Below are positions 8,502-23,971 of a stretch of DNA of 32,000 nucleotides, piece by piece. The notes under the pieces are model-generated. The model saw only the letters and a list, made by a program, of their open reading frames with translations. It had not been told where the DNA came from and did not search any database. Made by a program: the position numbers and the translations under genes. How positions within the stretch are numbered: position 1 is the first letter of the stretch; each line of letters starts with the position of its first letter. This stretch comes from Patescibacteria group bacterium (GTDB taxonomy: Bacteria > Patescibacteriota > UBA1384 > XYA2-FULL-43-10), in assembly GCA_041674405.1 (NCBI GenBank), contig JBAYVT010000005.1, positions 30,001-62,000 on the forward strand, read 5' to 3'.

Positions 8502-11500
8502 TTAGAGTTGTACAGCTTTGCCCTCTTCTAGATCATCTGCGCTACTATTGTCTTTGCTTGCGGTTAAGCTCCCGTCATCTTTTTCGTCGACGACAGAGGT
8601 CCTAGTCGGTACTGGTTTTATTTCCGGAGCAATTTCAAGGCTGGTACTCTCCCCGACCGGTACCACAGAATTCTCTTCTTTCAAAATGCCAACATTATTT
8701 ACAACGGAGACATCCTTTTTTGTAGAATTTCCACCCTTGTTATTTTGGGGCTTATTTTTTTCTTTTTTCTTTTTTCCAGTCCCCTCTTTTTTATCTTCTT
8801 TTTTCAAGGAATCTTTTATCTTCTCATTCAATTCAATCATTTTGAGGCCGGCGGGTGTAATTTCCACCCCTGTTTCTGCCATTTTTTCTTCATCAATATC
8901 TTCACCCATGTACCATTTCACTCCGCCCCTGGCGGTTTGCTCTTTATAGATTTTATCTCCGATAATGTTTTGATATCTAAAAATGCGAGGTTTGCTTTCC
9001 TTCGCCTCAGCTGAATCAGCCTCCTCCTCTTTGGGTTCGGATTGCTCAACAACTTTCTCCGGTAATTCTTTTTCAATAACAGGCTCTGCTGAGACGGGTT
9101 TTGGTGCTACTTTTGTTTCCGTCGGTTTTTCCTCGGCCTTTTCTGCGGGTTTATATTCTTCAATACCTGGGGCAGTGATCGGTTTTTCTTCTGGTTTTTT
9201 CATTGTCAAAAGAGCTTCAAGGCCGCCTTCTTTAAACGCTTCGGCCTCTTTCTTTGCCTCCTCCTGTTCCTTTTTTCCGCGGTCTTCTATCGCCTGCTCC
9301 ACCTCCCCTCGTGTTGCAGAATATTTTTTATGGGACAGATCAATAATTTTCTCGGCATTGCCAGTAAGTTCCATCCGTGGAGGCAAAGTTCTGGCAGAAA
9401 ACGCTGGAGCAGAAACACCATCTATTAAAAGCTTGATGTATATGTTGAACTTATCCAAATTCACCAAATCATTAGCATCAAAAACCGGTTCGAATTCTTT
9501 TACTAGATAATCGGCGTCTGTCCCGCCAACCCTAAAGGAAATAATCGTACCAGCATTGCCGAAAACCGCGTCTCTCACCTCTTCCGGCATTTGGGTAATG
9601 TATTGGTTGGCGATATTTAGGTTAAGATGATATTTTCGAGCTTCAGACAAGATCACAGCGAAAGACTCAGTCGCAAAATTCTGAAACTCATCAACATAAA
9701 GATAGCAATCAGGTCTTTTGTCAACAGTGACATCGGCGCGGCTCATTGCAGCAAGCTGAATTTTTGTAATAAGCATTGCCCCCAGTAGCGCAGAGTTATC
9801 CTCACCTATTTTACCTCGAGACAAATTGACCACCATTATTTTTTCTTCATCCATAATTTGTCGGATATCTAGCGTAGATTTAGGCTGGCCAACGATATTT
9901 CTAATTGTAGCTGTTGACAAAAACTGGCCGACTTTATTCAAAATCGGCGAAACCGCCTCGGTCCTGAACTTGCTGTCGTATTGTGCAAATTCCATAGTCC
10001 AGAACTCGCGAATAACGGGGTCCTTCACCGCCTCAACAACTCTTTCGCGAAATCTTGTTTCAGTAAGCATTTTTGGAATATCAAGCATTGTTGAGTTCGG
10101 ATAATCAAGAAGAGCAAGGACAGTATTGCGAAGTATATGTTCAAGCCTCGGTCCCCAGGAATTTCCAAAGATCTTTTTGAAAATACCGACGAATCCGGAT
10201 GCGACCATTCCCTTAAAATCATCTTCCACATGTTCCAGAAGGTTAAATGCAATCGGGTAAGCTCTATCAGCCGGATCAAACACAACCACATCTTCAACTC
10301 GATTATCGGGGACGCAAGCTAATACTTTTTCTGCAAACTCACCATGTGGATCGACGATTATTACTCCCCTATTTTCAAGAACATCATCAACCGCCATATT
10401 CTCTAAAAATACTGATTTACCCGTACCAGACTTACCAATTACATATATGTGTCGCCTGCGATCATCCCGTTTGATACCAAAACGCCGATGGATATTTCGA
10501 AAAGTTGTCTCCCCTATTACTGTCAAATCTTCAGGAGGGGTATTTTCCGAAAGTGGCAAATTCGCTGGCGGCTCCCCTTTCTTTGATCCGGACCAGACAA
10601 TATTGGGCGTCTCTACCGATTTGTGGGGAAAGTGATAAAGAGATGCGAGTTCTCCGATATTGAAAACATATCCCTCATCCTCAAACACTCTGCCACAATA
10701 ATCTTGCCAAAATTCATGGTGATCGATTTCGATATCGCCGCTCTTGAACCCATTTAGATTTGTGGTGTTAAACTGCTTGAAAGCCGCAGCAATGCTCTGG
10801 GTTTTAACCTTCGCCGATACTTCATCTTGCGAAATCGACATAATTCTAATCTTGGTAGCAAATCCGAGTTTCATGATTTTCATTTCGATGGACTTAAGGG
10901 CATCTTCGACAGTTCCTGGGAGCTCTACCTTATTTTCACCGGGAGCCGCGATTTCCGCTCCAGGGGTAACGGCCTGAACAAAAATCATTTTCAAAACGTT
11001 GCCGAACATACCAAAGATCTTAGAGATTACACCACCTGCTCCCTGTTTCTTGCCGGAGCGCACAGCTGAAATTAACTTATTTCCCCTATCCTGCCACTCA
11101 TCCCCCACCGGACGAATCAAAATTTGCATCCAGACTTGTTCGCCAGGGTTCAATTTTGACATTACCGAGGTAATACCAGATATCGGGTCAACTTCAAAAT
11201 CAGAGAAAAGCTTAATCGGATAAACATCTGGCTTGGTCACTTTTAGCTCCGTTCCGGCAAAATGCACCTTGCCATCTCCAATTTCGGAAATATAATCAGA
11301 AACTTCATGAATTTCAACCGTCGGATATTGAGCATAAACTTGTCCCTCCACAAATTCCTTTAAGTGTTTCGGGACAAATACATAAAACTGAATATATTTA
11401 TCCTTTGCAACAATCTCAAAAGACATATGGTTTTGAAAGAGAGCATTCTCCGAATAAATGCCATGAATCGAAGCAAACATTTGCTCAGCAGCAAGCGGTG

Positions 11501-11663
11501 CTTTTTCATTGTTTCTAGGAACATCAATTCTGATTATTGTGTATTCCTGGGACGAAAGCCACGAAAGGCGCCGTTCATTTTGGCGAATCTTAAAAAACTG
11601 CAAGAGTGTATATACTCCCCCCAGAATTAGCACTAAATATAAGAAATATAAAAATATTGCCAT
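8502..11663 (-). CDS. Membrane-anchored VirD4/TraD/TraG-like (type IV coupling protein-like) P-loop ATPase, paralog 1. It has a roughly 380-aa N-terminal domain of unknown function and a roughly 280-aa E/K/P-rich C-terminal tail.
   Basis: One N-terminal TM (IFLYFLYLVLILGGVYTLL). Walker A IGKSGTGKSVF; DPHGEF; Walker B CYLYVDEFQNF (the DEF-type box is typical of T4CP/TraG); NQY...; RVGGTDADYL. It is collinear with the 847-aa paralog over the N-domain and the ATPase. The tail carries a poly-Lys block. Confidence 0.75.
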   Translation of the reverse strand: MAIFLYFLYLVLILGGVYTLLQFFKIRQNERRLSWLSSQEYTIIRIDVPRNNEKAPLAAEQMFASIHGIYSENALFQNHMSFEIVAKDKYIQFYVFVPKHLKEFVEGQVYAQYPTVEIHEVSDYISEIGDGKVHFAGTELKVTKPDVYPIKLFSDFEVDPISGITSVMSKLNPGEQVWMQILIRPVGDEWQDRGNKLISAVRSGKKQGAGGVISKIFGMFGNVLKMIFVQAVTPGAEIAAPGENKVELPGTVEDALKSIEMKIMKLGFATKIRIMSISQDEVSAKVKTQSIAAAFKQFNTTNLNGFKSGDIEIDHHEFWQDYCGRVFEDEGYVFNIGELASLYHFPHKSVETPNIVWSGSKKGEPPANLPLSENTPPEDLTVIGETTFRNIHRRFGIKRDDRRRHIYVIGKSGTGKSVFLENMAVDDVLENRGVIIVDPHGEFAEKVLACVPDNRVEDVVVFDPADRAYPIAFNLLEHVEDDFKGMVASGFVGIFKKIFGNSWGPRLEHILRNTVLALLDYPNSTMLDIPKMLTETRFRERVVEAVKDPVIREFWTMEFAQYDSKFRTEAVSPILNKVGQFLSTATIRNIVGQPKSTLDIRQIMDEEKIMVVNLSRGKIGEDNSALLGAMLITKIQLAAMSRADVTVDKRPDCYLYVDEFQNFATESFAVILSEARKYHLNLNIANQYITQMPEEVRDAVFGNAGTIISFRVGGTDADYLVKEFEPVFDANDLVNLDKFNIYIKLLIDGVSAPAFSARTLPPRMELTGNAEKIIDLSHKKYSATRGEVEQAIEDRGKKEQEEAKKEAEAFKEGGLEALLTMKKPEEKPITAPGIEEYKPAEKAEEKPTETKVAPKPVSAEPVIEKELPEKVVEQSEPKEEEADSAEAKESKPRIFRYQNIIGDKIYKEQTARGGVKWYMGEDIDEEKMAETGVEITPAGLKMIELNEKIKDSLKKEDKKEGTGKKKKEKNKPQNNKGGNSTKKDVSVVNNVGILKEENSVVPVGESTSLEIAPEIKPVPTRTSVVDEKDDGSLTASKDNSSADDLEEGKAVQL

Positions 11664-11708
11664 CCTGATACCAATTTTATCATGAATTGCACTTTAATTA
11701 AAAGTGAA

Positions 11709-12731
11709 TTATGCCAGGATATATTTACTTGATCCAATTTTCTTAAATTCGCTTTGGTTTTGCAGATTGATAAGAACTGTATTTTTTCTTACTTGGCGTT
11801 GTTTCAAAACTTCCTTGTAAATATCTGAGAAATCCATAGCGCCGTCTTCCTGCTTCAAAACGGCAATTATGATATCTTTAACCGTTCCCGGGGCGTATCC
11901 CCACTCTTTTAGTGCGTATATGCCGCGGCCAATCAACACAAAACGAGCGTCGGCAATGAGTTCGTTGTGAACAGTTGCGGGAACTACTTTTTTCTTATCA
12001 AATTGTTCTTCTGAGATTACCTTTGCAATATCGGTAAAATGCATCGGTTTTTTATTTTTGCGAAGAACGTAGTAAATTTTATCCCTGACCGTTCTTGGGT
12101 TGACTTCCGGCCATTCGGAAAGACCAAGAGATCCTTCGTAGTCCTCAACAATTTTTTTTGAAATTCTCGGCAAATATGACAAAAATGAAATTTTATGAAC
12201 TTTGTGATTCGGGTGTGCATCAATTAATATATCTAACTTTTGGGGGCTTTTCTGTTTCTTTAAATAATTTGCCCAATCGCGAAGAATTTTAATTACTTCA
12301 TCTTTGGATAAATCATTCAAAATCCAGCTTTCATGTAATTCGTCATGTTTTTCGATTGCTTGAACTTCGGGAACAACTTTAATAATCAAGTTCAACGAGT
12401 TTATTTCCTCGTCTTTTGCAAGAGCCTGGCTTTCTAGTACTTTCGCCGCTATATCCTCTTTGTGAATAATACCTTGTGTTTTGATTTCTCCCAAAATGTC
12501 ACCGGCAAGAGCAGAGTTCTCTTCGGCAATATACTTAGCAACTTTTTTAAGCCCTTCTTTTTCAATTTGCCTGATTCTTTCTCGCGATAGGTGCAAATCT
12601 CTGCCAATAGATGATAGAGTTCTCCCCCTGCCATCAATTCCGAAACGACCACGAATGACCAGGGCTTCTTTTTCTTTAAGCCCTGATGTCGCCTTGTCAA
12701 TAATAGTTTTTGCCGACCTGATTTTTTCCAT
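11709..12731 (-). CDS. Sigma-70 region-4-like HTH followed by two HARE-HTH-like modules (putative transcription factor / RNAP-associated protein)
   Basis: N-terminus LKEKEALVIRGRFGIDGRGRTLSSIGRDLHLSRERIRQIEKEGLKKV is a region 4.2 signature. C-terminal MHFTDIAKVI ... HNELIADARFVLIGRGIYALKEWGY resembles the HARE-HTH of RpoE (delta subunit). A second, weaker copy is MDFSDIYKEV ... NQSEFKKIGSSKYIL. Confidence 0.65.
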   Translation of the reverse strand: MEKIRSAKTIIDKATSGLKEKEALVIRGRFGIDGRGRTLSSIGRDLHLSRERIRQIEKEGLKKVAKYIAEENSALAGDILGEIKTQGIIHKEDIAAKVLESQALAKDEEINSLNLIIKVVPEVQAIEKHDELHESWILNDLSKDEVIKILRDWANYLKKQKSPQKLDILIDAHPNHKVHKISFLSYLPRISKKIVEDYEGSLGLSEWPEVNPRTVRDKIYYVLRKNKKPMHFTDIAKVISEEQFDKKKVVPATVHNELIADARFVLIGRGIYALKEWGYAPGTVKDIIIAVLKQEDGAMDFSDIYKEVLKQRQVRKNTVLINLQNQSEFKKIGSSKYILA

Positions 12732-12742
12732 CTTGTTTCTTT

Positions 12743-13240
12743 CTAGATTAGATTATCAACCGCAGCCCAGACTGATTCCTGGTCTTTTGGAACAATTATT
12801 CCAAGGCTGTCCCCTGTTTTGGCTTTAAAATATGTTACGGAAGCTAAAAGAACTTTGTACTTTTTTCCTTCAACATCGACTTGATATTCGCCGTCACCAG
12901 TTTCTTCCAATGTGCCAATCAAGTTCTTTCTGGGAACGGGACCGATTTGCTTGTAAACAAACTTGCCATCCTCAGAAATGGTTAGCTTGAGAATATCTCC
13001 CTCAATGAGCTTTGATTTTGACGCATAATTTGGCGGAACTTGATAGGTTTTTTTATCAGAAGAAATCATTTTTTCACCATCAAAAACTCCCTGAATTACC
13101 TCCCCATCATCTTCTGTTTCAAGTAGTGTCGCTTTTTTGTTTATTTCTGATGCGAAAAGTTTCGATTTGATAGCCCTGATCTGGTTCTCACAGGAATCAA
13201 GCAATTTCCTTATTTCTTCAAGATCGTTTTTGGCGACCAT
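12743..13240 (-). CDS. Hypothetical protein with an N-terminal helix and two beta-rich (SH3/KOW-like?) modules
   Basis: Start moved to Met25 (ATG 13240, preceded by gaaagg). The first 24 listed codons overlap a near-consensus promoter. I recognise no family. Confidence 0.55.
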   Translation of the reverse strand: MVAKNDLEEIRKLLDSCENQIRAIKSKLFASEINKKATLLETEDDGEVIQGVFDGEKMISSDKKTYQVPPNYASKSKLIEGDILKLTISEDGKFVYKQIGPVPRKNLIGTLEETGDGEYQVDVEGKKYKVLLASVTYFKAKTGDSLGIIVPKDQESVWAAVDNLI

Positions 13241-13283
13241 ATTGGCCTTTCGTTTTATTTCAGTTTTGCTATTCTCAGCTATC

Positions 13284-13312
13284 ACATTACCACAATAATG
13301 AACTTGAGTCAA
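13284..13312 (-). promoter_or_regulatory. Candidate internal promoter (TTGACT-17 nt-TAATGT)
   Basis: Minus-strand ttgact at 13312-13307, a 17-nt spacer, taatgt at 13289-13284. It sits about 45 nt upstream of ATG 13240. Confidence 0.5.
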
Positions 13313-13330
13313 CGTTTTTGCCGCTAGTTG

Positions 13331-13393
13331 TTAGTTTCTAGTTTCAGGAAAAACTCAATAATAAAATCAAGCCTTCTACAAACTAGAAACTGG
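13331..13393. repeat. 12-bp perfect inverted repeat (agtttctagttt / aaactagaaact) with a 35-nt spacer
   Basis: Arms at 13333-13344 and 13380-13391, extendable by two G-U pairs. It lies between the stop of the 847-aa ATPase (13411) and the promoter at 13284-13312. Confidence 0.85.
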
Positions 13394-13410
13394 CTACTAG
13401 AAGCTATCTG

Positions 13411-15954
13411 CTATCCCAATACTCCCTTAATGTTTCCCTCACCAATACCAGGAAGATCAATTACATCTACTTTTGACCTATCGCGAATTTCTTGGTCAAC
13501 TATTTCGCGGGGTTTGCCATACTTTAATCGGGACAATTCAACCATAGCACTTCCCAATTTCTTGTTTTCGTTTTGATCAGGAGCAACGCTTGCCGCGTTA
13601 AACGGCCTCGTTGGCGCTCCGTCAATAAGCATTTTGATATAAAAATTGTATTTATCAATTGTCGTCATGTCGTCGATTTTTAATGGATCAAACTCTTTGA
13701 TAAGAAATTCAGCATCGACGGCCCCGATCCGGAAAGCCACCAACGTGCCGGCGTTTCCCATAACAGCATCTCTGATTTTTTCATCCAATTGCGCCACATA
13801 CTGGTTTGTAATATTGAGCGAAAGTTTATATTTTCTAGATTCAGAAAGGATAGTTGCAAACACATCCGTGATAAAGTTTTGAAACTCGTCCACATAAAGA
13901 TAAAACGGGGTTCTGTCTTTTTCATTTGTGTCCTGCCGCGAAAATGCTCCCATTGCAATTTTGGATACAATTATCATTCCAAGAAGAAAAGCATTTATCT
14001 CCCCTATCAATCCCTTTGATAGATTGCAAATCAATATCTTTTTTCCATCCATAACTTCTCGAAAGTCGAAGGCTGATTTATTTTGGCCAATAATATTTCT
14101 CATCATGTCATTGGTCATAAATCGTCCAAATTTCGAAGTAAAATAGTTCAACATTTCTGACTTGTGAAAATCTGAAGTTTTTGCCATTTGTTTTTGCCAA
14201 AACGCCTTAACGACAGGATCTGTAACATTTTTCACGCACTCTTTTTCAAAATCCGGATCAGTAAACAGCCTAGGAATGTCAACGATTGTGCCCCCTTCTG
14301 GCTGAACCATTAAGGTAAGGGCGGCATTCCTCATCCAATGTTCGAATTGCGGGCCCACAATGCCGGTTTGGCCCGGATCAAACAATTTATAAAACATCTG
14401 AATTGTTTCCTGAACCAAGAAATCTCTCTGCTCCGGTGTCTTCCACTCAAGCATATTAAGCCCCATCGGCCGTTCAATATCCGCCGGGTTAAAATAGATG
14501 ACGTCTTCCGCCCGTTCTTTGGGGATGCGGTTTAATATGTATTCAGCAGCGTCGCCATTCGGGTCAAGATATGCCACTCCCCGGCCTTCGCGGATGTCTT
14601 GCATAATCATGTTTTCAAAAAGAACGGTTTTACCAACGCCGGTTTTACCAATCATATATATATGGCGTAGCCGATCTTCTTCTTTTATTCTGACCGGCTT
14701 TGTTTCTCCACGATAAATGCTGTTGCCAATAATCGTTCCTTCGTCTGGCAGATTTGAAGGCGGAGCCTGTCTTTTTGCCAAAAGCCAAGCGACATTTGGC
14801 GTTTCGACAAATCTATTTGGCATGTGAATTATCGAGGCCAACTCTTCTGTGTTTAAAATCATTTTCAAACCAGCGCCGAAAATCCTAAAAATATAATTTC
14901 CCACTTCCCTACCCTTGTTTTTAGCTTTTTTGGGAAGAATGTTATTTGAGTCCGGTGCATTAAATTGGGAAAACGCACTAGCAATATTCTTTGCATTTAG
15001 CTTCGCTTCTTCGGCCGTTTTTGCAACCGCCACAATCCTAACTTGAACATCAAACCCTATCTTTGCCGCTTTTTCTCCTAAAAGTTTTACCTGCGCTTCT
15101 TGCATCGGCGTCTGCTTATACGGGTTCTGTGGGTTATACATTGGATCATGCTGGCCATCTTTGTCACCAGGTTTTACCGCATTGTTGCCAACTTTTCCAA
15201 TAAAATTAAAGAAGGTTTCTGTCGCCCTTACGGTTTTATTATTAGAATACGAAAGCCTGGTTTTGCCTTGTTGGATATTGTAGGCCGCTTTCTCTGAACC
15301 CACTCGCCAAACCTGATTGTTTGGACGGATCATGACTTGTATTCCCGCTGACTCATCTTCGGACAATTTGGAAAGCGAATTGGTGATTGCATTCAGGGGG
15401 TCTTCCTCCAGATTTTTATATGTCCGAATTGGAAAAATATATCTGCGAGCAAGGATCAGTGTTAGAATTTCGATAGGCAGGGGCTTATCTGGAAAAATCG
15501 AGTAATCAAGATCGCGATCGATATTTGCTTCAGGATATTGCGCATGCAGGTTTTTCTCCACAATCTCAGCAATTGTCGTAGGGCAACCGATATAGAAAAA
15601 TATTTTGCCGTTTTTTGCAATTATCTCCATAGAAATGTGGTCTTGGCCCGTAATGGATTTTTTTAAATCTTTGTCAAACAAAGAGTTTATGCTGGCATAG
15701 AAAGGTTCAATCACAGAAAGCATCTCCTGAAAATTTTTGCGCTGGTCATCTTCACTGGCGTGTGGCTCCTTCGGCACGGAAACTCTAAGCATAGTCCAAT
15801 CTTCAACCAATTCAAGCTGTTTTCTGTGCAAAAATGCATTACGAATTTTTTTATACAGAAAACTGATTACAATGATGATTGCTATTATTGCGAGAGGCCA
15901 AATCCACCAAGGCGCCCCTCCTCCGGTATCGTAATAATTGGGATCTGAATACAT
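13411..15954 (-). CDS. Membrane-anchored VirD4/TraD/TraG-like P-loop ATPase, paralog 2
   Basis: One TM (WWIWPLAIIAIIIVISFLY). N-domain matches to paralog 1 include SMEIIAKNGKIFFYIG vs SFEIVAKDKYIQFYVF, and ELASIIHMPNRFVETPNV vs ELASLYHFPHKSVETPNI. Walker A IGKTGVGKTVL; DPNGD; Walker B FYLYVDEFQNF; NQY; RIGAVDAEFL. Confidence 0.75.
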   Translation of the reverse strand: MYSDPNYYDTGGGAPWWIWPLAIIAIIIVISFLYKKIRNAFLHRKQLELVEDWTMLRVSVPKEPHASEDDQRKNFQEMLSVIEPFYASINSLFDKDLKKSITGQDHISMEIIAKNGKIFFYIGCPTTIAEIVEKNLHAQYPEANIDRDLDYSIFPDKPLPIEILTLILARRYIFPIRTYKNLEEDPLNAITNSLSKLSEDESAGIQVMIRPNNQVWRVGSEKAAYNIQQGKTRLSYSNNKTVRATETFFNFIGKVGNNAVKPGDKDGQHDPMYNPQNPYKQTPMQEAQVKLLGEKAAKIGFDVQVRIVAVAKTAEEAKLNAKNIASAFSQFNAPDSNNILPKKAKNKGREVGNYIFRIFGAGLKMILNTEELASIIHMPNRFVETPNVAWLLAKRQAPPSNLPDEGTIIGNSIYRGETKPVRIKEEDRLRHIYMIGKTGVGKTVLFENMIMQDIREGRGVAYLDPNGDAAEYILNRIPKERAEDVIYFNPADIERPMGLNMLEWKTPEQRDFLVQETIQMFYKLFDPGQTGIVGPQFEHWMRNAALTLMVQPEGGTIVDIPRLFTDPDFEKECVKNVTDPVVKAFWQKQMAKTSDFHKSEMLNYFTSKFGRFMTNDMMRNIIGQNKSAFDFREVMDGKKILICNLSKGLIGEINAFLLGMIIVSKIAMGAFSRQDTNEKDRTPFYLYVDEFQNFITDVFATILSESRKYKLSLNITNQYVAQLDEKIRDAVMGNAGTLVAFRIGAVDAEFLIKEFDPLKIDDMTTIDKYNFYIKMLIDGAPTRPFNAASVAPDQNENKKLGSAMVELSRLKYGKPREIVDQEIRDRSKVDVIDLPGIGEGNIKGVLG

Positions 15955-16039
15955 TCGGAAATTTCTAATTTCTAATGACCAATTTTTTAATCCCTAAATT
16001 TTTTAGTTATTAGATTTTAGTTATTAATTATTAACTAAA

Positions 16040-17635
16040 TTATGCCGCTTTTCTCAGTTGCTCTTCTTCCGATGCTTCGCGTCTTGCATCCGCCGCCATT
16101 TCTTCAATATCATGAACCTGTTTTGATGACACTTCGGAAGAACGAGCTAGGCCAGCCGCCCAATTTCTGAACCGGGCAGATAACGGCAATTTCGGCCCGC
16201 TAGCTTGTTTCTGTGTGCCTATGGGAATTTCACGGCTAGACTGAGAAGAAATATCCACCGGCTGAATCTCCCCTATGACACCTTCTTTCTTTTTATCTTC
16301 TGTCGGCTCAATAATTTTAGCATGCGGTTCTTTTTCAAGGGTAGGCAGGGGCCCCGGTTCCGCTTCAACGCTGGCCACAATATGATCTTGCGGTACCTCT
16401 ACCAATTTTACTTCATCCTTTTTAGCCTGAATGTCTCCACTTTCCACTTGTTCATGTCCTTCTGCTTCTGTCTGATTTGGCAATACGGGCTGTGTTTCAA
16501 TAACAGGGGCTTCTGTTCTTGGCAGAGGTTCTTCTTCTACATTATCAATTGTAATATTACCACCGGTATTATTTGCCTCATTTATTAACTTAAGGGCCTT
16601 TTCTCTTGCCGGATTTACAAATTCTGGAGCGCTGGCCTTTATGCGACCGCTAGCTGCCGGTTTTTCTCCGCGCAATATTCTAATTTCTTTGCCCCCATCA
16701 AGTGTTTCCGCGTCTAACTCTTTTTTTGGTTTTAAGGTCGGATCCAAAGGTTTGGCCGCTGGAGCTTCTGCTAACGGCTGATCCATAAGGCCATCAAGTT
16801 CTTCCACGACCACTGCCGCAGAATCATCAGCCCCACTGGCTGCATCCTTTGCTTGTTGTTCTGGATCAAGATTTCTGGCCCCTGAAACAGGCTCGTCTTC
16901 ATCACGAAGTTCAATTGCTGAAACTTTGGGAGCTTGGGGCAACGAGTTTTTTATTGCTTTAACGGCGATCTCCAAATTTTTACTATGGTCCAATCCCCTT
17001 TTGTTAAGATCGCGCCTAGCAAGATCCTTGTTTACAACATCGCTTTTCGGAGGCAAGTCTTGGTCAAATTTCTCTATTCCTCCGGAAACGTTTCTGCCCT
17101 GCTCACTTAGCACTCCCCCATCTGGACCAATTGAAACAATTTCCTCCACTTTGGCTGGGCCTTTGGGTAATTCTTCACGAGCGACCTCAGGCTCAACCGC
17201 AGGCTTTGCAACCTCTGGTTCCAATTCATCTGGACCGAGATATTCCAATTTGGGCCGCGAAATCTCTTCGGCTGGCTTAGCTTCTTCAGGTTCTATTCTC
17301 GTCGAAGCAACTGGCTCCGGATCAATTTTTTTTCTTCCCGCCATCCTTTCAAGCCGCAATCTAACCCTCTCCGGAACGGATATCGGAGTTTTCGCCTCAG
17401 CGTGCACGTCTGTTTCAGCCATAGAAATCGTGACATCTGTACCTTCAGTTGTATCGTCTGGGCCAATCATATATTCATTCAGTAAGGCTCTTTTTTCCTC
17501 AGGTGAAGCACTTGCCAATCTCTCTTTGAGATGCAAAAACAAACCAACATCAGGCTCTTGATGTTCGGAATTTGAAAATGCCTGGGCAATGCCGATTAAA
17601 CTTCCATCCTTCTTCTCGGGGTCACTACTTGCCAT
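16040..17635 (-). CDS. Acidic, Pro/Glu/Lys/Ala-rich low-complexity protein, predicted to be largely disordered, with no TM or signal peptide
   Basis: A 531-aa ORF in the operon orientation whose start overlaps the upstream stop by 11 nt. It has repetitive EPEVAKPAVEPEVAREE-type segments. I recognise no family. Confidence 0.6.
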   Translation of the reverse strand: MASSDPEKKDGSLIGIAQAFSNSEHQEPDVGLFLHLKERLASASPEEKRALLNEYMIGPDDTTEGTDVTISMAETDVHAEAKTPISVPERVRLRLERMAGRKKIDPEPVASTRIEPEEAKPAEEISRPKLEYLGPDELEPEVAKPAVEPEVAREELPKGPAKVEEIVSIGPDGGVLSEQGRNVSGGIEKFDQDLPPKSDVVNKDLARRDLNKRGLDHSKNLEIAVKAIKNSLPQAPKVSAIELRDEDEPVSGARNLDPEQQAKDAASGADDSAAVVVEELDGLMDQPLAEAPAAKPLDPTLKPKKELDAETLDGGKEIRILRGEKPAASGRIKASAPEFVNPAREKALKLINEANNTGGNITIDNVEEEPLPRTEAPVIETQPVLPNQTEAEGHEQVESGDIQAKKDEVKLVEVPQDHIVASVEAEPGPLPTLEKEPHAKIIEPTEDKKKEGVIGEIQPVDISSQSSREIPIGTQKQASGPKLPLSARFRNWAAGLARSSEVSSKQVHDIEEMAADARREASEEEQLRKAA

Positions 17636-18029
17636 CTTTGACAGGTGCCTTTCTTAAAAGCTCGTCCTTAATATCCATGAGCTCTTTTAGGATTTTATCT
17701 TCATATCCCGGAATATTTGCTTTCACAAAATCGTTAATCTCAGCCGCATCCGCTTTTTGGGCAATTTCCGAAAATTCCGCAACTTTGCCCTCCGGCAGAT
17801 AAAGCATAATTACATTGAGAATTCTCGCGTTAACGAGCTCCTCCATCTTCTTTTCTACCTGTTCTCTTTCAACATCTGAGATACCGGAGTTCTTGCCAAA
17901 TCCAAGATCCTCCATTAATCTCTCTTTGTACATTTGAATGGTGGCAGCAACATCGGCCTTATCGCCGCTAGATTGGTCCGAATTTGCATCGTTCATATTT
18001 GTTTGTAGATTGTCATCCAAATCGGCCAT
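17625..18029 (-). CDS. Small acidic helical protein, reminiscent of the short acidic ORFan families common in CPR genomes
   Basis: Strong RBS (ggaggg, then 3 nt, then ATG). The core LMEDLGFG ... ISDVEREQVEKKMEELVNARILNVIMLYLPEGKVAEFSEI ... INDFVKANIPGYEDKILKEL resembles a family I recall as a Patescibacteria DUF. This is unverified. Confidence 0.6.
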   Translation of the reverse strand: MADLDDNLQTNMNDANSDQSSGDKADVAATIQMYKERLMEDLGFGKNSGISDVEREQVEKKMEELVNARILNVIMLYLPEGKVAEFSEIAQKADAAEINDFVKANIPGYEDKILKELMDIKDELLRKAPVKDGK

Positions 18030-18047
18030 ATTCCCTCCAATATATAA

Positions 18048-20516
18048 TTATAATGTGACTTTGCTAAAATATGAAAATTCCATCGCCTTAAGGGAAGACT
18101 CGTCAAGACTGACAGGGGTTCCAAAAGTTCCGGTAGCCGGGTCAAACGGCTTGAATTCGAAATTTGGGGCAGTAAAACTATCAAGTTGCAAGAATCTTCC
18201 AAATGAGCTTGCATACAACACACAATTACTCGCATAACCAGCGCCAGCTAAAGATTTTAAACTATCGACGAACTTATCCTTCTTTTTGTCTGTAATTCCG
18301 AATTTACCCTCAAGATTGTAATCATCCCCGCTCACATTTATATATGCATCAACTTCCCAGATTAGATCTTTGCCATCTTTATCGACATCTAGAATAACTA
18401 CATCAATATCTGCACCCGAAGGCAACATTGCAAGTTCGGCGATCCTTGGTGATTTGACAATCATCTTTTTGCTCGGAGCACCTTTGCTTACGCCAGTAAG
18501 GATATAATCACCGCCGAGCCTCTTTAGCTTTCCGGTAAACTTCTTGCCCAGATATTTTTCATAAGCTTCTTTATCAAATTCTTCTTCTGGCTCTATTTCT
18601 GGTGACGAACCTCTCCCTCTTGAAACAACATTGACTAAATTCCTATCAATAGTTCCTTCGGCAGTAAGTATGTCATCAAGTGAAAATTCCGGATGCGGAT
18701 TTACAGGCGTTGGCCCAGATAATTTTTTCCTATCCGCTTCCGTCATCTTAAATACAAGCCTGCCACTTGCATCAATATCGGTAATTTCAAATCTTCGGTC
18801 TCTTGTACCGATAACATATCCGGCAGGCAATGTGGTAAACATGACTGTCGCCCCGATCAGTTCTTGCTTTACATTTTCTTTATTTTCTTTAGTCTTGTCT
18901 CGCTTTTCTGCCTGCTTTTCCGACCGGTTCTCGGCATTTTCTTTGCGCCGGACATCTTTTGCTTCATCTGTAAGCCTTCTTTGCGCCTTTTCATTGCCCC
19001 TTTGGGCTTTATCAATACCCAAATATCCGGCAACAGCAGCCACTCCTACGCCTCCGGCAATTTTCGCCATAAGAGAAGCAGAAGCTGCATCAGCTGAAGA
19101 ATTGTGTGCTAAATCCAAGAAATCGGTGGCAAGCGAAGGATGGGAAAGAATAAAATGTTGAATATCAGGCGGGAAGGAAAGAAAGGTTTCCTTGTTGTCC
19201 ACAAGAAACTGGCCAAATTGTCCGCCATCCGGCATCGCCACTGACAAGTCTAAATTCGAATGGTCGGCAAGATTAAACATTTCGTGCAGATTGCCGGATT
19301 GAAGATATTGATTGAATGTGGCCTCATAGGTCGGGCCTAGTCCGGTGGCCTGATCAAACCCAAACAGAGCTCGATCCCCGCCAAATTCTTTAATTGCATT
19401 TATGTGTCCAACCATATCGATATGCTCAGGCGGAACCATGCCTTGTCCCATATCTTGGTTGTAAACATCAAAATTATTTTGCATCGTTTGGAAGTGTTGT
19501 AAATCTTCTTGGTATGCGGCATCAGTTAGTGATGCTCTCTTCGCATCCAATGCGTCATGGAGCACTTGCTCGTGAGACTGGGTGTGCAAAATATGCTCCG
19601 AAATCCAATCGTTCACCCCATGCATGCCGCCATGGTGTTGAGCATAGTCAACGACTGTTCCAATTACGCCTCCAAACGCCGCGCCAACCATTGCGCCCTT
19701 GACCGCAGTCATAATTTCCGCTTTGCGCTTTAATGCAAATATTTGATCATAGGTTTCTCTCGTCTCTTCTGAAGCCATTCTGGCTATCTCTTTAGATTCA
19801 TCTCCCGCATCAGCTAAAGCTTGGTCTATGCGCGACATAACCGGATTTAGCTCTTTATTCTCGGCCAATCTTTCGTTTCTACGATCTCTTAGAACTTCCT
19901 TCATCAATCGATATTTTGAAATATATTCGAGTTTGGCTTGTGCATTTCCACGCACATTTCTCGCATCCATCGCATTTTTCATAATACCAAGAGCAGTGTA
20001 TAAATCAGCTTCAGTCATCTTGGACATATCTGTTTTGCTCTTCGAAAGTATATCAAGGTTTGCCATCCAGGTAGCTGCAGATTCCTGCTGATTTCGGCCT
20101 CGCATCCAACCCCAAAATCCGCCGGCAGCACCACCACCAACTGCACTTGCAGCAGGGCCTGCGAGATGTAGTCCGGCACGCACACCTGTCCGTATTGCCA
20201 TACCCACGCCAACAGAGCCGACCATTCTGCCTGCCCAGTTGTTCCATACACCATTCCAAGCACCACGAATACCGCGCCGGGATGCGATTACTTGCAAAAG
20301 AATATTTGCATCAGAGTCCATTTCGGTCAAAATCGCCCTTACTGCCTCAGGATTGCGCAGCATCTCTGCGTGTTCTTTGGCAGCATCTTGCTCCACTAGG
20401 GTTCTTGGCTTCGCAAAACCATAGCTCGATCCCCAATCGTCTCGGTCGATAATACTACCGACTCGCTCGGCAATATCTTCGTTTACATCGGTGCGCCTTT
20501 CACCTCGTGTAGCCAA
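18048..20516 (-). CDS. Large hypothetical protein with three Gly/Ala-rich hydrophobic (glycine-zipper-like) segments, a K/E/R-rich linker and a beta-rich C-terminal domain
   Basis: The ORF is open from GTG 20534. However, agGGAGGgaaaTTG places a strong SD 4 nt before TTG 20516, the same geometry as the next gene's GGAGGgaatATG. Hydrophobic segments: GSVGVGMAIRTGVRAGLHLAGPAASAVGGGAAGGFWGW; AVKGAMVGAAFGGVIGTVV; IAGGVGVAAVAGYLGI. Confidence 0.6.
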   Translation of the reverse strand: MATRGERRTDVNEDIAERVGSIIDRDDWGSSYGFAKPRTLVEQDAAKEHAEMLRNPEAVRAILTEMDSDANILLQVIASRRGIRGAWNGVWNNWAGRMVGSVGVGMAIRTGVRAGLHLAGPAASAVGGGAAGGFWGWMRGRNQQESAATWMANLDILSKSKTDMSKMTEADLYTALGIMKNAMDARNVRGNAQAKLEYISKYRLMKEVLRDRRNERLAENKELNPVMSRIDQALADAGDESKEIARMASEETRETYDQIFALKRKAEIMTAVKGAMVGAAFGGVIGTVVDYAQHHGGMHGVNDWISEHILHTQSHEQVLHDALDAKRASLTDAAYQEDLQHFQTMQNNFDVYNQDMGQGMVPPEHIDMVGHINAIKEFGGDRALFGFDQATGLGPTYEATFNQYLQSGNLHEMFNLADHSNLDLSVAMPDGGQFGQFLVDNKETFLSFPPDIQHFILSHPSLATDFLDLAHNSSADAASASLMAKIAGGVGVAAVAGYLGIDKAQRGNEKAQRRLTDEAKDVRRKENAENRSEKQAEKRDKTKENKENVKQELIGATVMFTTLPAGYVIGTRDRRFEITDIDASGRLVFKMTEADRKKLSGPTPVNPHPEFSLDDILTAEGTIDRNLVNVVSRGRGSSPEIEPEEEFDKEAYEKYLGKKFTGKLKRLGGDYILTGVSKGAPSKKMIVKSPRIAELAMLPSGADIDVVILDVDKDGKDLIWEVDAYINVSGDDYNLEGKFGITDKKKDKFVDSLKSLAGAGYASNCVLYASSFGRFLQLDSFTAPNFEFKPFDPATGTFGTPVSLDESSLKAMEFSYFSKVTL

Positions 20517-20544
20517 TTTCCCTCCCTTATTCACGCATAGAATA

Positions 20545-20624: not shown

Positions 20625-20651
20625 AAAAAACGGCCGCCCGGAGGGCAACCG
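20625..20651 (-). terminator. Intrinsic terminator of the GC-rich cassette gene
   Basis: Minus-strand cggttgccc-tcc-gggcggccg is a 9-bp stem with two G-U pairs, which are mismatches on the plus strand. It is followed by tttttt (20630-20625). Confidence 0.65.
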
Positions 20652-20712
20652 CTTTTGCGTGCGATCATTTTGTACTTCTTCCCAGTATGATCAAACTGGG
20701 GAATGTAGCACG

Positions 20713-21555
20713 TTACGGTCTCGTACCAGTGCTTCGGAAGCGAATGCCCCCGATGCGAACGCGGAACTCGTAGTTAGTCCCGGCAGGAGCCTGCTGTTCC
20801 CACTCTTCCCACAGGTTACCAGCCATGCGAACGATATTCGGCCAGAACAACCATACCAGCAGGCCGATAACACCTCCGATGACCAGGACCAGGACCGCCC
20901 AGCGCCAGACCTCCCCTCTGACCTGAGCGCCCGTCATAGGCGGCGCAGCCGGGGCCTGGACGGCCGGCATGATCGTAGCAGGAGCGACAGGTACCGGCAC
21001 GGACGGAAGCGGCGCGATCTGCGGCTGGGCCGCAGGGGGCGCCAAGGGGGCGGCGGCCGGGGCCTGCGGAGTCTGGACCGGCGCAGGTGTCGTGGCAGTG
21101 GGCGGGGCGGTGGGAGCAGAAGCAGGATCGGTCTTGGTCGGCGCATCCGTCGTCTTGAGGACATAGCGCTTGTCCAGCTGGCCCTGCGTCTTGTAGCCCC
21201 AATCCTGCAACCAGGCGTTGGAAGCGGTCTGTCCCGCAGGGGGCAGCCCGTTAATCCCATGCTGCTCCAGGTTATCTACCCGGCCACCCAGGGCGTTGAG
21301 CTGCCCCTGGAGGTGGCTGATGTTCCCAGACGCCCGGCGGGCACGGGGAACATCGCGGTGGATCGTGGCCTGAGCTAGCTCCTGCCTTGCGGTGGCAAGC
21401 TGGCCCTGCAGGCTGGCGATCTCGGCGTCCTTCGCCGCGATCTGCGCGGCGTTGTTGGTCGGAGCCGGAATCGGCCCCTGTGCCAAGACGGCGCAAGCAG
21501 ACAAAACGACCAGGAACAAAACGGCTATCAGGTTGTGGGTGGTGAAGTTTTTCAC
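20713..21555 (-). CDS. GC-rich foreign-looking envelope protein: lipoprotein-type signal peptide, coiled-coil, Pro/Ala-rich linker, C-terminal TM helix and a short basic tail
   Basis: GTG start preceded by agagagg plus 5 nt. N-terminus MKNFTTHNLIAVLFLVVLSAC contains an LSAC lipobox-like motif. Coiled-coil AKDAEIASLQGQLATARQELAQA ... LQGQLNALGGRVDNLEQ. A PA-rich stretch follows. TM WRWAVLVLVIGGVIGLLVWLFW. Third codon positions are strongly G/C-biased, unlike all neighbouring genes. Confidence 0.6.
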   Translation of the reverse strand: MKNFTTHNLIAVLFLVVLSACAVLAQGPIPAPTNNAAQIAAKDAEIASLQGQLATARQELAQATIHRDVPRARRASGNISHLQGQLNALGGRVDNLEQHGINGLPPAGQTASNAWLQDWGYKTQGQLDKRYVLKTTDAPTKTDPASAPTAPPTATTPAPVQTPQAPAAAPLAPPAAQPQIAPLPSVPVPVAPATIMPAVQAPAAPPMTGAQVRGEVWRWAVLVLVIGGVIGLLVWLFWPNIVRMAGNLWEEWEQQAPAGTNYEFRVRIGGIRFRSTGTRP

Positions 21556-21577: not shown

Positions 21578-21605
21578 CTCGAGGGCTATCGCAATAGCGC
21601 TCGAG
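21578..21605 (-). promoter_or_regulatory. Stable hairpin with a UGCG (UNCG-class) tetraloop, about 20 nt upstream of the cassette gene's SD
   Basis: Minus strand: cucgagcgcuau-UGCG-auagcccucgag. This is a 12-bp stem with one mismatch. Confidence 0.4.
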
Positions 21606-21797
21606 GTCGGACAGGTATTTGTCTTCCTCGGAGCAATGTATCTGCCAGCATTCGCGCCAGAATAATGATCACGCCAGAATTACGCTGATCTTGCATTCAC
21701 ATTGCTTCGAAGAAGTATATATTGTTAAGGTGCCATCGCTCTCAGTATCCCACTTCGCTACGCTCCGCGGGATTATTAGGCTAAAGCCTAATAAAAA

Positions 21798-22011
21798 GTG
21801 CGATAAGGTGCTGTACAACAACACGGGTGGAGGGGGAACCCATGGCTCAAACGACGAATCGTTTGAATGTCATACAGCACGCTACCGCACTAATATTTCA
21901 GGAAAGTGTGCGACATTGTGCCGGATAGCAGTCACAGGCGGAGGGGGAACCTGTGTCTCGATATGTTTCCGAAGAAACAATCAAGAAAGCTATCCAGCAC
22001 GATGTCGCACA
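21798..22011 (-). ncRNA. Tandem pair of three-way-junction structured RNA elements in the 5' leader of the GC-rich cassette. I recognise no family, and the strand assignment is tentative.
   Basis: Unit 1: closing helix 21798-21820 with 21868-21890; hairpin A 21822-21844; hairpin B 21848-21865. Unit 2: closing helix 21907-21927 with 21991-22011 (21 positions, 1 wobble, 1 mismatch); hairpin A 21933-21955; hairpin B 21965-21978. Plus-strand loops are conserved (A = GGAGGGGGAA, B = CGAA) while the stems differ with compensation. On the minus strand the B loops read UUCG, and a TTGACA-17-TGcTACAAT promoter points into the region. Confidence 0.55.
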
Positions 22012-22068
22012 ATGTTGTAATTTCCCTTCCAAGAGCTTAAGATCCCTCTCTCACCCTCGGAACACGCT

Positions 22069-22097
22069 ATTGTAGCATATACTATAAATTTTGTCAA
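22069..22097 (-). promoter_or_regulatory. Near-consensus sigma-70 promoter (TTGACA-17 nt-TGcTACAAT) driving the GC-rich cassette
   Basis: Minus-strand ttgaca at 22097-22092, a 17-nt spacer ending in tgc, tacaat at 22074-22069. It lies in AT-rich sequence at the cassette edge. Confidence 0.6.
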
Positions 22098-22196
22098 GAC
22101 CTTTAATTTATTACTTTCTAAAATAAATTGTAGTGTGATAAAATATTGATGTAATTATAAAAAGCTCTATTTTGAAAGAATAAAAGAAAGGAAGAT

Positions 22197-23660
22197 ATGG
22201 GAATATTTGACCGATTCCGCGGCGGCGGAAAACCAAGTGATCCAACGATAAATATTGAAAAAGAAGATTTGCAGCCGACAGACAAAGAAATTAAAGAAGC
22301 CAATAAGACCAAAATGGATGAGGCTCTCAATGACCCCAAATTTACGGCGTTTCTTGAAAAATTTGGCGATACTGAAACAGTTGATGTAGGTGAAGATAGT
22401 TCGGAAATTCTTGAACGTTATGAAATGTATCAGACAATCGGTTCTGCTTCAAAAGAAATTAAGTCAGTATTGCGCGAAGAAATATTTGCCGACACCCAAA
22501 TAAATCTCACTGACAAGGAGTTGGAATGTGTTAATGAGTTCATGGAAAGCTTGGCAGTCGAAGGCGGCAAAGGCACAATAGAGACTATCACCAAGACTAT
22601 GGCCGAATTTAGAGAACTCAAGCGGCAAATTGAAACAGAAGAACAAGGTCTATCTCAACGATCCGAGGCATTTGAAAAGAGAAAAGCCGCATTTGACGCA
22701 GCCAAAGATATCAAGCCCTATAAACGTGTATTGGAAAGATTTTTAAGCAAAGACGAAGCTGGGGCAATTCAGGAAGCGAGAAAAGCCGGCGTTGAGGTAG
22801 CCGGTTTCGGCAATCGTAATTTGGCGGCTAAGGAAGAAGAATTTAAAACCGAAGGATCCACCATAGACAATCTCAAATCTGCACAGGAAGCGAGGCGCAA
22901 ACAATGTGCCGAAGCAAGAGAAGTGCTTCTTGGGCAGTTTGCCGAAGATTCCGGAGCAATGAACGCAATACGGCAAAAGATTGCTGACCGCCTCACCGGC
23001 ATGGTGACCGAAGAAAGCAAGGCGGGCAAACTCGATGACGCACAATCACAGCTCGAACAATTCAAGTCAGTAGATAGCCGCTATGTCGACGAGGAAAGAT
23101 TGGGCGAAGATTTTCAGAAAGAATTGGATAAATACTTAAAAGAACGCCTCGGTGAAATGATCAAAACCACCCTAGGAAAACTAAAATCTGAGCGCGGTCA
23201 GCTAGATACGGCAAGAAGAAATTTAGACCAATTCTTCAAACGCGAGGTGATGGGTTCTGCTTCCGGTGAAGAAGTAAAGGAATTTGTCGGCCAAACCATC
23301 ACAGAGGCTTATAAAGATTTGAGCTATCCACAAAAGCTTCTGGTACGAAAAGTTTGTGCAGAAAATGGGATCGATTTAGCAAATTATGTTACAAAGACAG
23401 AACCTAAGCCTGAAGATGATGAAGAAACCAAAGGTGGTTCGAAGGATTCCGAATCCTCTGTAACAGGGTCTGTGGAAGCCGAAAAACAGGAATCACCTGC
23501 TGGATGGCATGTTGAAGATGGAGTTTGGGTTCGCGATACAGCTCCTGCTTCAGCAGAAAATCCAGGCGCGGATGGTCCAAAAATTATTAACCCGACAAAA
23601 GCTTCTACTCCTGAAACATCAGCAGAAAATCCTGATGCCGGCCATGATCAAGCTATTTAA
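22197..23660 (+). CDS. Acidic coiled-coil hypothetical protein (487 aa)
   Basis: RBS aaggaag before the ATG. It has long helical/coiled-coil-type K/E/A/Q-rich segments and a low-complexity P/E/S/T C-terminus. There is no TM or signal peptide, and I recognise no family. A possible extended -10 (tgataaaat) lies at 22136-22144. Confidence 0.6.
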   Translation: MGIFDRFRGGGKPSDPTINIEKEDLQPTDKEIKEANKTKMDEALNDPKFTAFLEKFGDTETVDVGEDSSEILERYEMYQTIGSASKEIKSVLREEIFADTQINLTDKELECVNEFMESLAVEGGKGTIETITKTMAEFRELKRQIETEEQGLSQRSEAFEKRKAAFDAAKDIKPYKRVLERFLSKDEAGAIQEARKAGVEVAGFGNRNLAAKEEEFKTEGSTIDNLKSAQEARRKQCAEAREVLLGQFAEDSGAMNAIRQKIADRLTGMVTEESKAGKLDDAQSQLEQFKSVDSRYVDEERLGEDFQKELDKYLKERLGEMIKTTLGKLKSERGQLDTARRNLDQFFKREVMGSASGEEVKEFVGQTITEAYKDLSYPQKLLVRKVCAENGIDLANYVTKTEPKPEDDEETKGGSKDSESSVTGSVEAEKQESPAGWHVEDGVWVRDTAPASAENPGADGPKIINPTKASTPETSAENPDAGHDQAI

Positions 23661-23680
23661 TTAATTTTTGAAGGAAAATT

Positions 23681-23971
23681 ATGGCAAATAACATTGAAGA
23701 AATTGAAAAATTGCTAAAAGAAGGCAAGAAAGACGAAGCTAAAAAATTGATCACCGATCTCGTCTCTCAAGACATGAGCGACAAAGAAAGAGGCTCAGTA
23801 TATACCGATCTAGCCCTTGCTTACATGGAGATCAGCAATGAAATTAATCGAAAATATCTGGAAGAATTGCGAGAAATTTCTGCCGGTTTAAAAGAAATTG
23901 ACCAAATCGATACAGCTAACAACTCCGAGTTCGAAAAAGCTCAGGCACGCAAGAATATTTTAGACTCGTAA
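23681..23971 (+). CDS. Small acidic helical hypothetical protein (96 aa)
   Basis: RBS gaagga before the ATG, 20 nt after the upstream stop. I recognise no family. Confidence 0.5.
   Translation: MANNIEEIEKLLKEGKKDEAKKLITDLVSQDMSDKERGSVYTDLALAYMEISNEINRKYLEELREISAGLKEIDQIDTANNSEFEKAQARKNILDS

Follow-up and report, generated by a model that had tools for sequence, protein, structure and literature searches.

The stretch of DNA analysed here (hereafter the window) comprises 32,000 nucleotides of a Patescibacteria group bacterium (assembly GCA_041674405.1, contig JBAYVT010000005.1, positions 30,001 to 62,000), and its genes include those for TGT, L7/L12, SecDF and VirD4/VirB4-like proteins. All window coordinates count from the first letter of this stretch. 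On its minus strand, behind a near-consensus promoter and about 240 nt ahead of a GTG-started open reading frame (ORF), lie two adjacent RNA units (Table 1). They are copies of a structured RNA module that is conserved and strand-specific, presents an invariant C-rich loop and is promoter-proximal in the leader of a single type of gene. A first-pass annotation, made by a model from the letters alone, had described two similar folded units at this site, and every feature that it described was confirmed at the coordinates given, including the shared sequence blocks, the inverted repeats and the predicted folds.

The minus strand of region 21780-22030 folds with a free energy of -113.8 kcal/mol (z = -12.5), a value equalled by none of 200 dinucleotide shuffles, while the plus strand gives -97.1 kcal/mol (z = -7.2). 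The minus-strand fold consists of two adjacent three-way junctions with UUCG B loops and 9-nt A loops of sequence UCCCCCUCC, in agreement with the UUCG and C-rich, anti-Shine-Dalgarno-like (anti-SD-like) loops that had been proposed for this strand. Each unit possesses a closing helix of approximately 22-25 bp with a small internal loop, a hairpin B capped by UUCG, and a 7-bp hairpin A. The closing helix of unit 1 is an inverted repeat of 23 nt that is 91% complementary, and that of unit 2 one of 24 nt with 79% Watson-Crick complementarity, which is higher when G-U pairs are counted. The sequence GGTTCCCCCTCC is common to both units (minus strand 21951-21940 and 21840-21829) and is confined to these two sites within the window. 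Besides the A loop, the units also share the blocks GUGCG...CGUGCUG and CAGCAC...UCGCAC.

The stems of the two units differ in a compensated manner, as had been claimed. Hairpin B is wholly different between them, yet is paired in both; in hairpin A, pair 4 changes from A-U to G-C and pair 3 from C-G to U-G, and parts of the closing helices differ with pairing kept. A coding explanation was rejected, as the lengths of the units of the family (94-114 nt) differ by non-multiples of three and the substitutions are pair-compensatory, so that the ORFs at 21619-22020 (plus strand) and 21898-22032 (minus strand) are not considered to be genes. Two copies alone could not exclude chance pairing; their homologs do.

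Relatives were located using the neighbouring genes. A search with TGT retrieved 80 loci, of which the closest (57-65% identity) were Patescibacteria metagenome-assembled genomes labelled Saccharibacteria or Berkelbacteria. A simple regular expression for a hairpin with a YCCCCYCC loop, run on these TGT-derived loci, matched nearly all of the close ones, on the TGT strand and 0.1-5 kb downstream of TGT; the close loci with no match (L023 and L027) both end at most about 100 nt past TGT. A covariance model built on 14 units then gave 15 strong matches, in the window and nine close TGT loci, with a weaker match in L028 and no match in more distant Patescibacteria loci. With the VirD4-like protein as query, hundreds of relatives at 62-87% identity were identified, several of them named Berkelbacteria. 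Eleven loci were retrieved by this route, and the RNA is present in each that covers the upstream region of the gene cluster. In total, 29 units in 19 arrays were identified at 18 Patescibacteria/Berkelbacteria-related loci, with covariation present. The RNA is confined to one site within each stretch of approximately 9-32 kb examined. Apart from one hairpin in a phage, described below, the family occurs among the sequences examined in Patescibacteria/Berkelbacteria-like metagenome-assembled genomes, invariably within the leader of the same type of gene. Other searches added no members: the 280-aa and 828-aa proteins of the locus gave only self-matches in a word-indexed database, the 487-aa neighbour had no relative in a scan of GTDB species genomes, and blastn of the leader against phage and plasmid collections gave no match. 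A pattern scan of metagenomes with CANNGGTTCCCCCTCCNCCNGTG, in a collection lacking the window's own contig, returned chance matches in coding sequence and the one phage.

Selection on pairing, claimed earlier from the two copies, is evident in these homologs. RNAalifold predicted 28 pairs from a MAFFT alignment, 24 of them with compensatory changes. Among the 23 strong units, 96.3% of alignment cells form standard pairs, a proportion which drops to 26-45% when the 3′ partner is slid by 1-3 columns, and 25 of the 28 modelled pairs have changed on both sides; no column shuffle (0 of 500) matched any of the observed pairing measures. The alignment of these 23 units is model-fitted, but its pairing is backed by the independent MAFFT/RNAalifold result and by the folds of single sequences, each of the 23 units adopting the same architecture when folded alone. 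Model scores are 54-90 bits on the sense strand and 24-41 bits on the antisense strand, and G-U pairs are numerous in the family structure, from which it follows that the structure belongs to the transcribed (minus) strand. The minus strand is thus the functional strand, having the better fold, the higher model scores, the G-U pairs and a promoter that reads it.

With regard to what is conserved, the 8-nt loop CCCCCUCC does not vary among the 23 strong units, and the most distant units have the looser form YCCCCUCC, as seen in L176 (UAUCCCCUCCA), in L178 (UUCCCCUCCUCC) and in the first of the L101 units (CUCCCCUCC). By its sequence this type of loop contains the anti-SD core CCUCC and is to be described as anti-SD-like. 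The closing helix is partly conserved in sequence (GUGCGG...GUGCUG / CAGCAC...CCGCAC), while its remaining pairs covary freely. Hairpin B is variable, with generic loops (UUCG, UUUA, or GCAA or GUAA of the GNRA type), and is absent from L028, L176, L177, L178 and the first units of L100 and L101, all six of which are plain long hairpins; in L025 an additional hairpin is present instead. Across the family the nucleotides of the junction vary. The three-way junction is therefore real in the window but, with hairpin B absent in six units, it does not define the family. As the distant relatives have only a long hairpin and a like loop, the ancestral module was a stalk presenting the C-rich loop, with the three-way junction and the tandem copy derived, and hairpin B of the window's subclade is an inserted, purely structural part.

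Table 1. Coordinates of the RNA units, leader elements and associated genes in the window, in related loci and in a phage.
Feature	Position	Strand	Details
Sigma-70-type near-consensus promoter	22069..22097	-	TTGACA-17-TACAAT, 11/12 matches, TG ahead of second hexamer
5′ leader segment	22013..22062	-	Begins GUUCCGAGGGUGAGAGAGG; predicted G-rich SD-like hairpin, then GGAAGGGAAAUU
Unit 1 (upstream)	21903..22012	-	Model R1 83.0 bits, E 2e-15; fold; repeats
Unit 1, closing helix	22011-21989 / 21929-21907	-	Inverted repeat
Unit 1, hairpin B loop		-	C(UUCG)G
Unit 1, hairpin A loop	21948-21940	-	UCCCCCUCC
Unit 2 (downstream)	21793..21892	-	Model R1 89.5 bits, E 8e-17; fold; U-run
Unit 2, closing helix	21891-21868 / 21820-21797	-	Inverted repeat
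Unit 2, hairpin B loop		-	UUCG
Unit 2, hairpin A loop	21837-21829	-	UCCCCCUCC
Unit 2, terminal U-run	21797-21793	-	UUUUU
Small hairpin	21773..21794	-	UUAUUAGGC-UUU-GCCUAAUAA; predicted fold; 5′ strand overlaps U-run
'GCGAAG' hairpin	21745..21772	-	AAUCCCGCGGAGCGUAGCGAAGUGGGAU; predicted fold; near-identical, same place, in L100, L105, L022, L028
Box	21715..21732	-	CACCUUAACAAUAUAUAC; apparently single-stranded; family consensus ACCUURACAAnWAAAUAG
Long imperfect hairpin of 3′ leader	21623..21715	-	Arms 21715-21690 / 21648-21623
GC-rich hairpin	21578..21605	-	Directly upstream of ribosome-binding site AGAGAGG at 21567-21561
Downstream gene, GTG start	20713..21555	-	280 aa: signal peptide, coiled coil, Pro/Ala/Thr-rich linker, C-terminal membrane anchor
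Intrinsic-terminator-like hairpin and U-run	20626..20656	-	Closes transcription unit
Type IV secretion-like cluster	8502-20534	-	Order largely conserved in relatives retrieved
Proteins of this cluster			VirB4/HerA-like 1053 aa; sigma70_r4+HARE-HTH 340 aa; VirD4/TraD-like 847 aa (DUF8128); 531 aa; DUF5663-like 134 aa; 828 aa
Gene behind RNA in relatives	L019 10961-12172; L100 3227-4579; L177 3655-4812; L178 3470-4876		Often much GC-richer than genome
Phage hairpin	L015 10048-10071 (= L002 5880-5902, L017 56-78)		Loop UUCCCCCUCCG, then U-run; between structural genes

The near-consensus promoter that the first-pass annotation had placed ahead of the units is present and has counterparts in every array: TTGACA-N17/18-TAnnAT lies upstream of the first unit in 16 of the 16 arrays examined and also in L176-L178. 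From the position of the promoter, transcription of the window RNA probably starts near 22062. The initial transcript GUUCYGAGGGUGAG(A/C)GAGG is conserved in the window, L019, L020, L022, L029 and L100, and more loosely in L026 and L104, and behind this G-rich tract there is often an SD-like (C)AGGAGGAA that no ORF follows. In the window these sequences are GAGGGUGAGAGAGG and GGAAGGGAAAUU (22055-22019), with no conserved ORF behind them, and in relatives CAGGAGGAA (L029, L104 and L106) and CAGGAGG (L101). It was also observed that a 12-nt direct repeat, AATTTCCCTCCC / AATTTCCCTTCC, occurs at 20515-20526 and 22019-22030; on the minus strand the former reads GGGAGGGAAAUU and is the ribosome-binding site belonging to the 828-aa gene, whose start codon is probably UUG, while the latter is the GGAAGGGAAAUU of the RNA's 5′ leader. 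This leader thus carries a near-copy of a real Shine-Dalgarno (SD) region, with no ORF after the leader copy.

The modules lie approximately 50 nt downstream of the promoter, inside a multi-domain leader which is strongly structured over its whole 533 nt (z = -11.4) and extends for a further 110-400 nt or so past the last unit, with recurrent elements. These include a U-rich/A-rich hairpin analogous to the small hairpin of the window (L100, L105, L022, L029 and L020) and the ACCUURACAAnWAAAUAG box, which is found between units and gene in 12 of 16 leaders as well as in L177 and L178 (equivalents include those of L029, L100, L101, L104, L020, L021, L022, L177 and L178). The TTRACA of this box, being TTGACA/TTAACA-like, was considered as a -35 element and rejected, as no -10 lies at a fixed spacing. 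The long imperfect hairpin has counterparts with a (Y)CGAGCAAG...CUUGCUCG(R) base in L022, L024, L029, L104 and both cassettes of L101, the base being GAGCAAG/CUUGCUC in several relatives, and a GC-rich hairpin precedes the ribosome-binding site in several loci. In the window, L029, L022 and L019, no sigma-70-like promoter was detected in the interval that separates the RNA from the gene. The whole leader of approximately 500 nt may be one multi-domain RNA.

In the window, UUUUU directly follows the second closing helix (helix end 21798). A run of at least four U residues after the closing helix of the last unit was found in 13 of the 19 arrays, is partial in three and absent in three, and this recurrence makes the earlier hint of an attenuator platform a reasonable one. 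The same hint had extended to a riboswitch-like platform; the terminator-like U-run is in keeping with it, but the unconserved junction argues against a riboswitch-like ligand pocket. Of the ten units that are not last in their array, just two have a U-run, each at a great distance from its successor; L021 and L025 carry a separate U-run after the first unit, with 250-600 nt to the next one. The simple hairpins of L177 and L178 resemble a textbook intrinsic terminator, save for their conserved loop of 9-12 nt.

The gene behind the RNA encodes, in every locus, a signal-peptide or prepilin-type protein with a Pro/Ala-rich or coiled-coil region. Most have a C-terminal membrane anchor, while the N-terminus of the L019 protein is instead a prepilin-type methylation motif. 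The protein is highly divergent, and homologs of the window protein were detectable at the same position only in L029 and L024. The GC content of the window gene is 57-79% (in 100-nt windows) against about 40% for the genome, and its counterparts have 54-69% overall in most relatives and 44% in L106. A foreign GC-rich island was rejected as an explanation, since the gene holds the same position in relatives and is therefore not a recent insert. With terminators equivalent to that of the window following the gene in L029, L022 and L019, it is predicted to be monocistronic. The RNA is linked to this gene throughout, whereas the genes between TGT and the RNA differ in order from locus to locus. 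In L101 (2070-5014), two consecutive cassettes each consist of a consensus promoter, a C-loop RNA and a signal-peptide gene (294 aa and 355 aa). This duplication of the whole RNA-plus-gene unit is reminiscent of the arrays of variable pilins and secreted proteins that have been reported close to virB4 in Patescibacteria.

The next genes encode a protein of approximately 830-1270 aa, DUF5663, VirD4-like, sigma70_r4+HARE-HTH and VirB4-like proteins. In several loci the DUF5663 gene separates the surface-protein gene from that of the 830-1270-aa protein, and L104 is more rearranged. No relaxase was seen among the window cluster proteins scanned. Type IV secretion clusters are reported to be widespread in Patescibacteria and to include variable arrays of secreted pilins; in one Saccharibacteria strain at least some components (TrsD, VirB3, VirB6 and the pilin array) have been reported to be essential for epibiotic growth (PMC12102498). 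The cluster found here is of the kind described there as the Patescibacteria type IV secretion system. On the other side of the RNA promoter, the 487-aa and 96-aa genes of the window (22197-23971, plus strand) are opposite in strand to TGT and the RNA, while the TGT strand carries the L029 counterparts of this pair as well as the equivalently placed genes of L101 and L106. This suggests a local inversion beside the promoter, in the AT-rich spacer at 22100-22196 (20-28% GC).

The first-pass annotation could not match the units to any RNA family, and Rfam 15 gave the same outcome: at gathering thresholds there were no matches on the whole window and a single tRNA, elsewhere, on seven related loci, and at E-values up to 10 three members (the window, L029 and L177) gave unrelated sub-threshold noise with no shared family. 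The 6C covariance model was not listed for these three members even at E-values up to 10. C-rich or C/U-rich loops that pair with SD sequences or G-repeats occur in the hairpins of RNAIII, in RsaE/RoxS and in RepG (Firmicutes, Helicobacter), that of RepG being a terminator loop. The phage mini-version and the L177 and L178 hairpins similarly place a C-rich loop on a terminator-like hairpin; the RNAIII/RsaE/RepG type nevertheless gives no Rfam match here, RsaE included if the library contains it, and differs from the family in phylogenetic group, size and leader context. In the 6C RNA of Actinobacteria (M. tuberculosis 6C/B11), C-rich loops bind G-rich single-stranded mRNA with no need for a chaperone (PMC6486639). 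Typically 6C has two C-rich apical loops, and the window family has one or two hairpins with the CCCCCUCC loop. However, 6C belongs to another phylum and is a free-standing small RNA (sRNA) gene, whereas here the loop sits on a stalk of 22-25 bp, often in a three-way junction, and the element forms part of a specific gene's 5′ leader. The sX13 RNA of Xanthomonas has three stems with apical C-rich (4C) loops, represses mRNAs with G-rich motifs in their ribosome-binding sites, is Hfq-independent and has been linked to the expression of secretion-system and type IV pilus genes (PMC3771888). It is a trans-acting sRNA at the proteobacterial polA locus and is not homologous to the window family, having no long closing helix and not being a leader. 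As in leader-terminator attenuators, a stable, G+C-containing helix with an immediate U-run lies between promoter and start codon and is accompanied by a conserved recognition loop; the difference is that the 'terminator' stem is here the closing helix of a branched domain of approximately 100 nt, and that no regulator was identified. The element is a new RNA family, not in Rfam 15 and so far restricted to a Berkelbacteria-like clade. What is known already is the kind of element, be it a C-rich-loop regulatory RNA or a leader terminator; what is new is its architecture, its context and its phylum.

By analogy with 6C and sX13, the reading tentatively preferred here, at somewhat less than even confidence, is that of a leader element, possibly a terminated small RNA, whose anti-SD-like loops pair with G-rich sequences. 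The C-rich loops would be the working part and would base-pair with G-rich, SD-like RNA, the candidate partners being the SD-like tract at the 5′ end of the RNA itself, a ribosome-binding site (that of the downstream gene or those of genes in the cluster) and, in trans, other mRNAs. Leader termination would occur at the last module, through its closing helix and U-run, so that the promoter would yield an abundant short RNA (leader and modules) and, by read-through, the mRNA. The outcome would be tuned translation or stability of the surface-protein mRNA, similar to the repression of G-rich ribosome-binding sites by 6C and sX13. The 5′ leaders are indeed richer in loop-complementary sites than the background of the same loci (median rank 0.086, Fisher combined p 4e-6, the loci not being independent). 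A number of points weigh against this reading. When the leaders are dinucleotide-shuffled, their complementarity to the loop is not reduced, and the signal is one of G-rich composition and not of a specific covarying duplex; as the loop never varies, intermolecular or long-range pairing lies beyond the reach of covariation. Six of nine GGAGGGG-type ribosome-binding sites (L100, L021, L022 and L105) lie in the cluster, with no clear enrichment, any SD sequence pairs with CCUCC, and wider duplex scans for loop targets gave noise in which generic SD-like sites predominated. The ends of the RNA, its termination and the read-through are each predicted from sequence, and three arrays (L021, L026 and L176) have no U-run. 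Pure loop pairing also leaves the conserved sequence of the closing helix unexplained, which would fit a protein-binding site.

This helix conservation fits a protein-recognised attenuator at least as well as loop pairing, and such an attenuator is the main rival, though on balance we think it unlikely. A host RNA-binding protein (an antiterminator, a KH/S1-type protein or RNA polymerase) would read the loop and the GUGCGG/CAGCAC helix, and its binding would decide termination at the closing helix and U-run ahead of the surface-protein gene. Conservation of the loop and part of the closing helix while other pairs covary, the terminator-like tail, the constant leader position, and the one or two copies reminiscent of dual-hairpin antiterminator sites are all in its favour, and a phage copy could hijack the same factor. 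Yet no RNA-binding candidate is present among the neighbours (VirD4/VirB4-like ATPases, the sigma70_r4+HARE-HTH protein and DUF5663), three arrays have no U-run, and no conserved antiterminator pairing was identified, no systematic search for one having been made. If the units were instead one or more stand-alone, trans-acting sRNA genes of approximately 100-250 nt, with C-rich loops regulating distant mRNAs, the downstream gene would need its own non-canonical promoter. The strong promoter and terminator-like end framing the units would suit this, as would the separate U-run of the first unit in L021 and L025, a second consensus promoter between units in L029, L104 and L106, the mini version in a phage, and the conserved TTRACA-containing box between RNA and gene. 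We regard it as improbable in view of the strict linkage to one gene kind despite varying gene order (L101 duplicating the RNA-plus-gene cassette), the lack of a -10 at a fixed distance from the box, and the failure to detect a sigma-70-like promoter between RNA and gene in the four loci named above.

STAB-SD-type stabilisers carry an SD-like sequence near the mRNA 5′ end with no start codon at initiation distance. The very stable structure, an SD-like tract close to the 5′ end that no start codon follows, and a consensus promoter suggestive of high expression would agree with a passive 5′ stabiliser, in the style of STAB-SD or S-layer leaders, in which helices and tract shield a highly expressed mRNA from 5′ exonucleases with no switching. 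This would leave unexplained the conserved helix sequence, the U-run and the invariance of the 8-nt loop across loci with TGT only 57-65% identical to that of the window, and it is judged very unlikely. Even less credence is given to an element acting at the DNA level, whether an oriT/single-strand hairpin for type IV secretion or a dispersed repeat (REP/MITE). The long inverted repeats and the adjoining VirD4/VirB4-like genes might suggest one; however, the pairing needs many G-U pairs and is hence strand-specific, the antisense scores are far lower, the element is always downstream of a same-strand promoter, and relaxases are reported to be missing from most Patescibacteria type IV secretion clusters (PMC12102498). 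The presence of one site per stretch examined also shows that it is not a dispersed repeat. A small-molecule riboswitch with tandem aptamers is scarcely credible either: the three-way junction, tandem arrangement and closing helix with U-run do resemble tandem aptamers with an expression platform, but the conserved junction pocket and obligatory architecture of a riboswitch are missing. The junction of the RNA is unconserved and its hairpin B dispensable, with generic loops where present (UUCG, GNRA, UUUA); the sole invariant nucleotides are those of an exposed apical loop, conservation being otherwise limited to part of the stalk, and no riboswitch model in Rfam matches.

Patescibacteria (the candidate phyla radiation, CPR) are mostly uncultured, with tiny genomes and few recognisable regulators, and to our knowledge no regulatory RNA has been characterised in the phylum. 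The RNA offers a concrete, testable handle on the control of their host-contact apparatus, with GGGGGAGG proposed as a mutant version of the loop CCCCCUCC. It is fixed ahead of a fast-evolving surface-protein gene that heads a secretion cluster, and has a consensus promoter and strong covariation. The few known C-rich-loop RNAs are joined by a new family, whose clean consensus is suited to an Rfam entry, and if the preferred loop-pairing reading holds, it would extend the C-rich-loop principle to Patescibacteria.

A copy of hairpin A was also identified in one phage (loci L002, L015 and L017, with terminase, portal and major head protein), which has an identical 23-nt hairpin A, CACAGGUUCCCCCUCCGCCUGUG, followed by UUCCUUUUUUU. 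Six bases match beyond the search pattern, for which the chance is roughly 4 x 1/4096, and a chance match is therefore unlikely. No other credible phage copies were found in IMG/VR, where a scan with GGTTCCCCCTCCGCC gave 70 matches and no credible hairpin besides that of L002. The phage hairpin could be a mini-copy of the loop hairpin of the host RNA, which suggests that this hairpin has a function that can be moved to sites outside the leader. An unlikely further extension is a Berkelbacteria-specific riboregulator with one or two mimics of the 16S anti-SD on rigid stalks, which would capture the SD-like tract at the 5′ end of its own transcript or vie for it with 30S subunits, thereby coupling ribosome availability to leader termination and setting the dose of the host-contact protein, the phage having copied the loop hairpin to tap this circuit. 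The phage hairpin lies approximately 60 nt downstream of a TTGACA-17-TATAAT promoter of its own.

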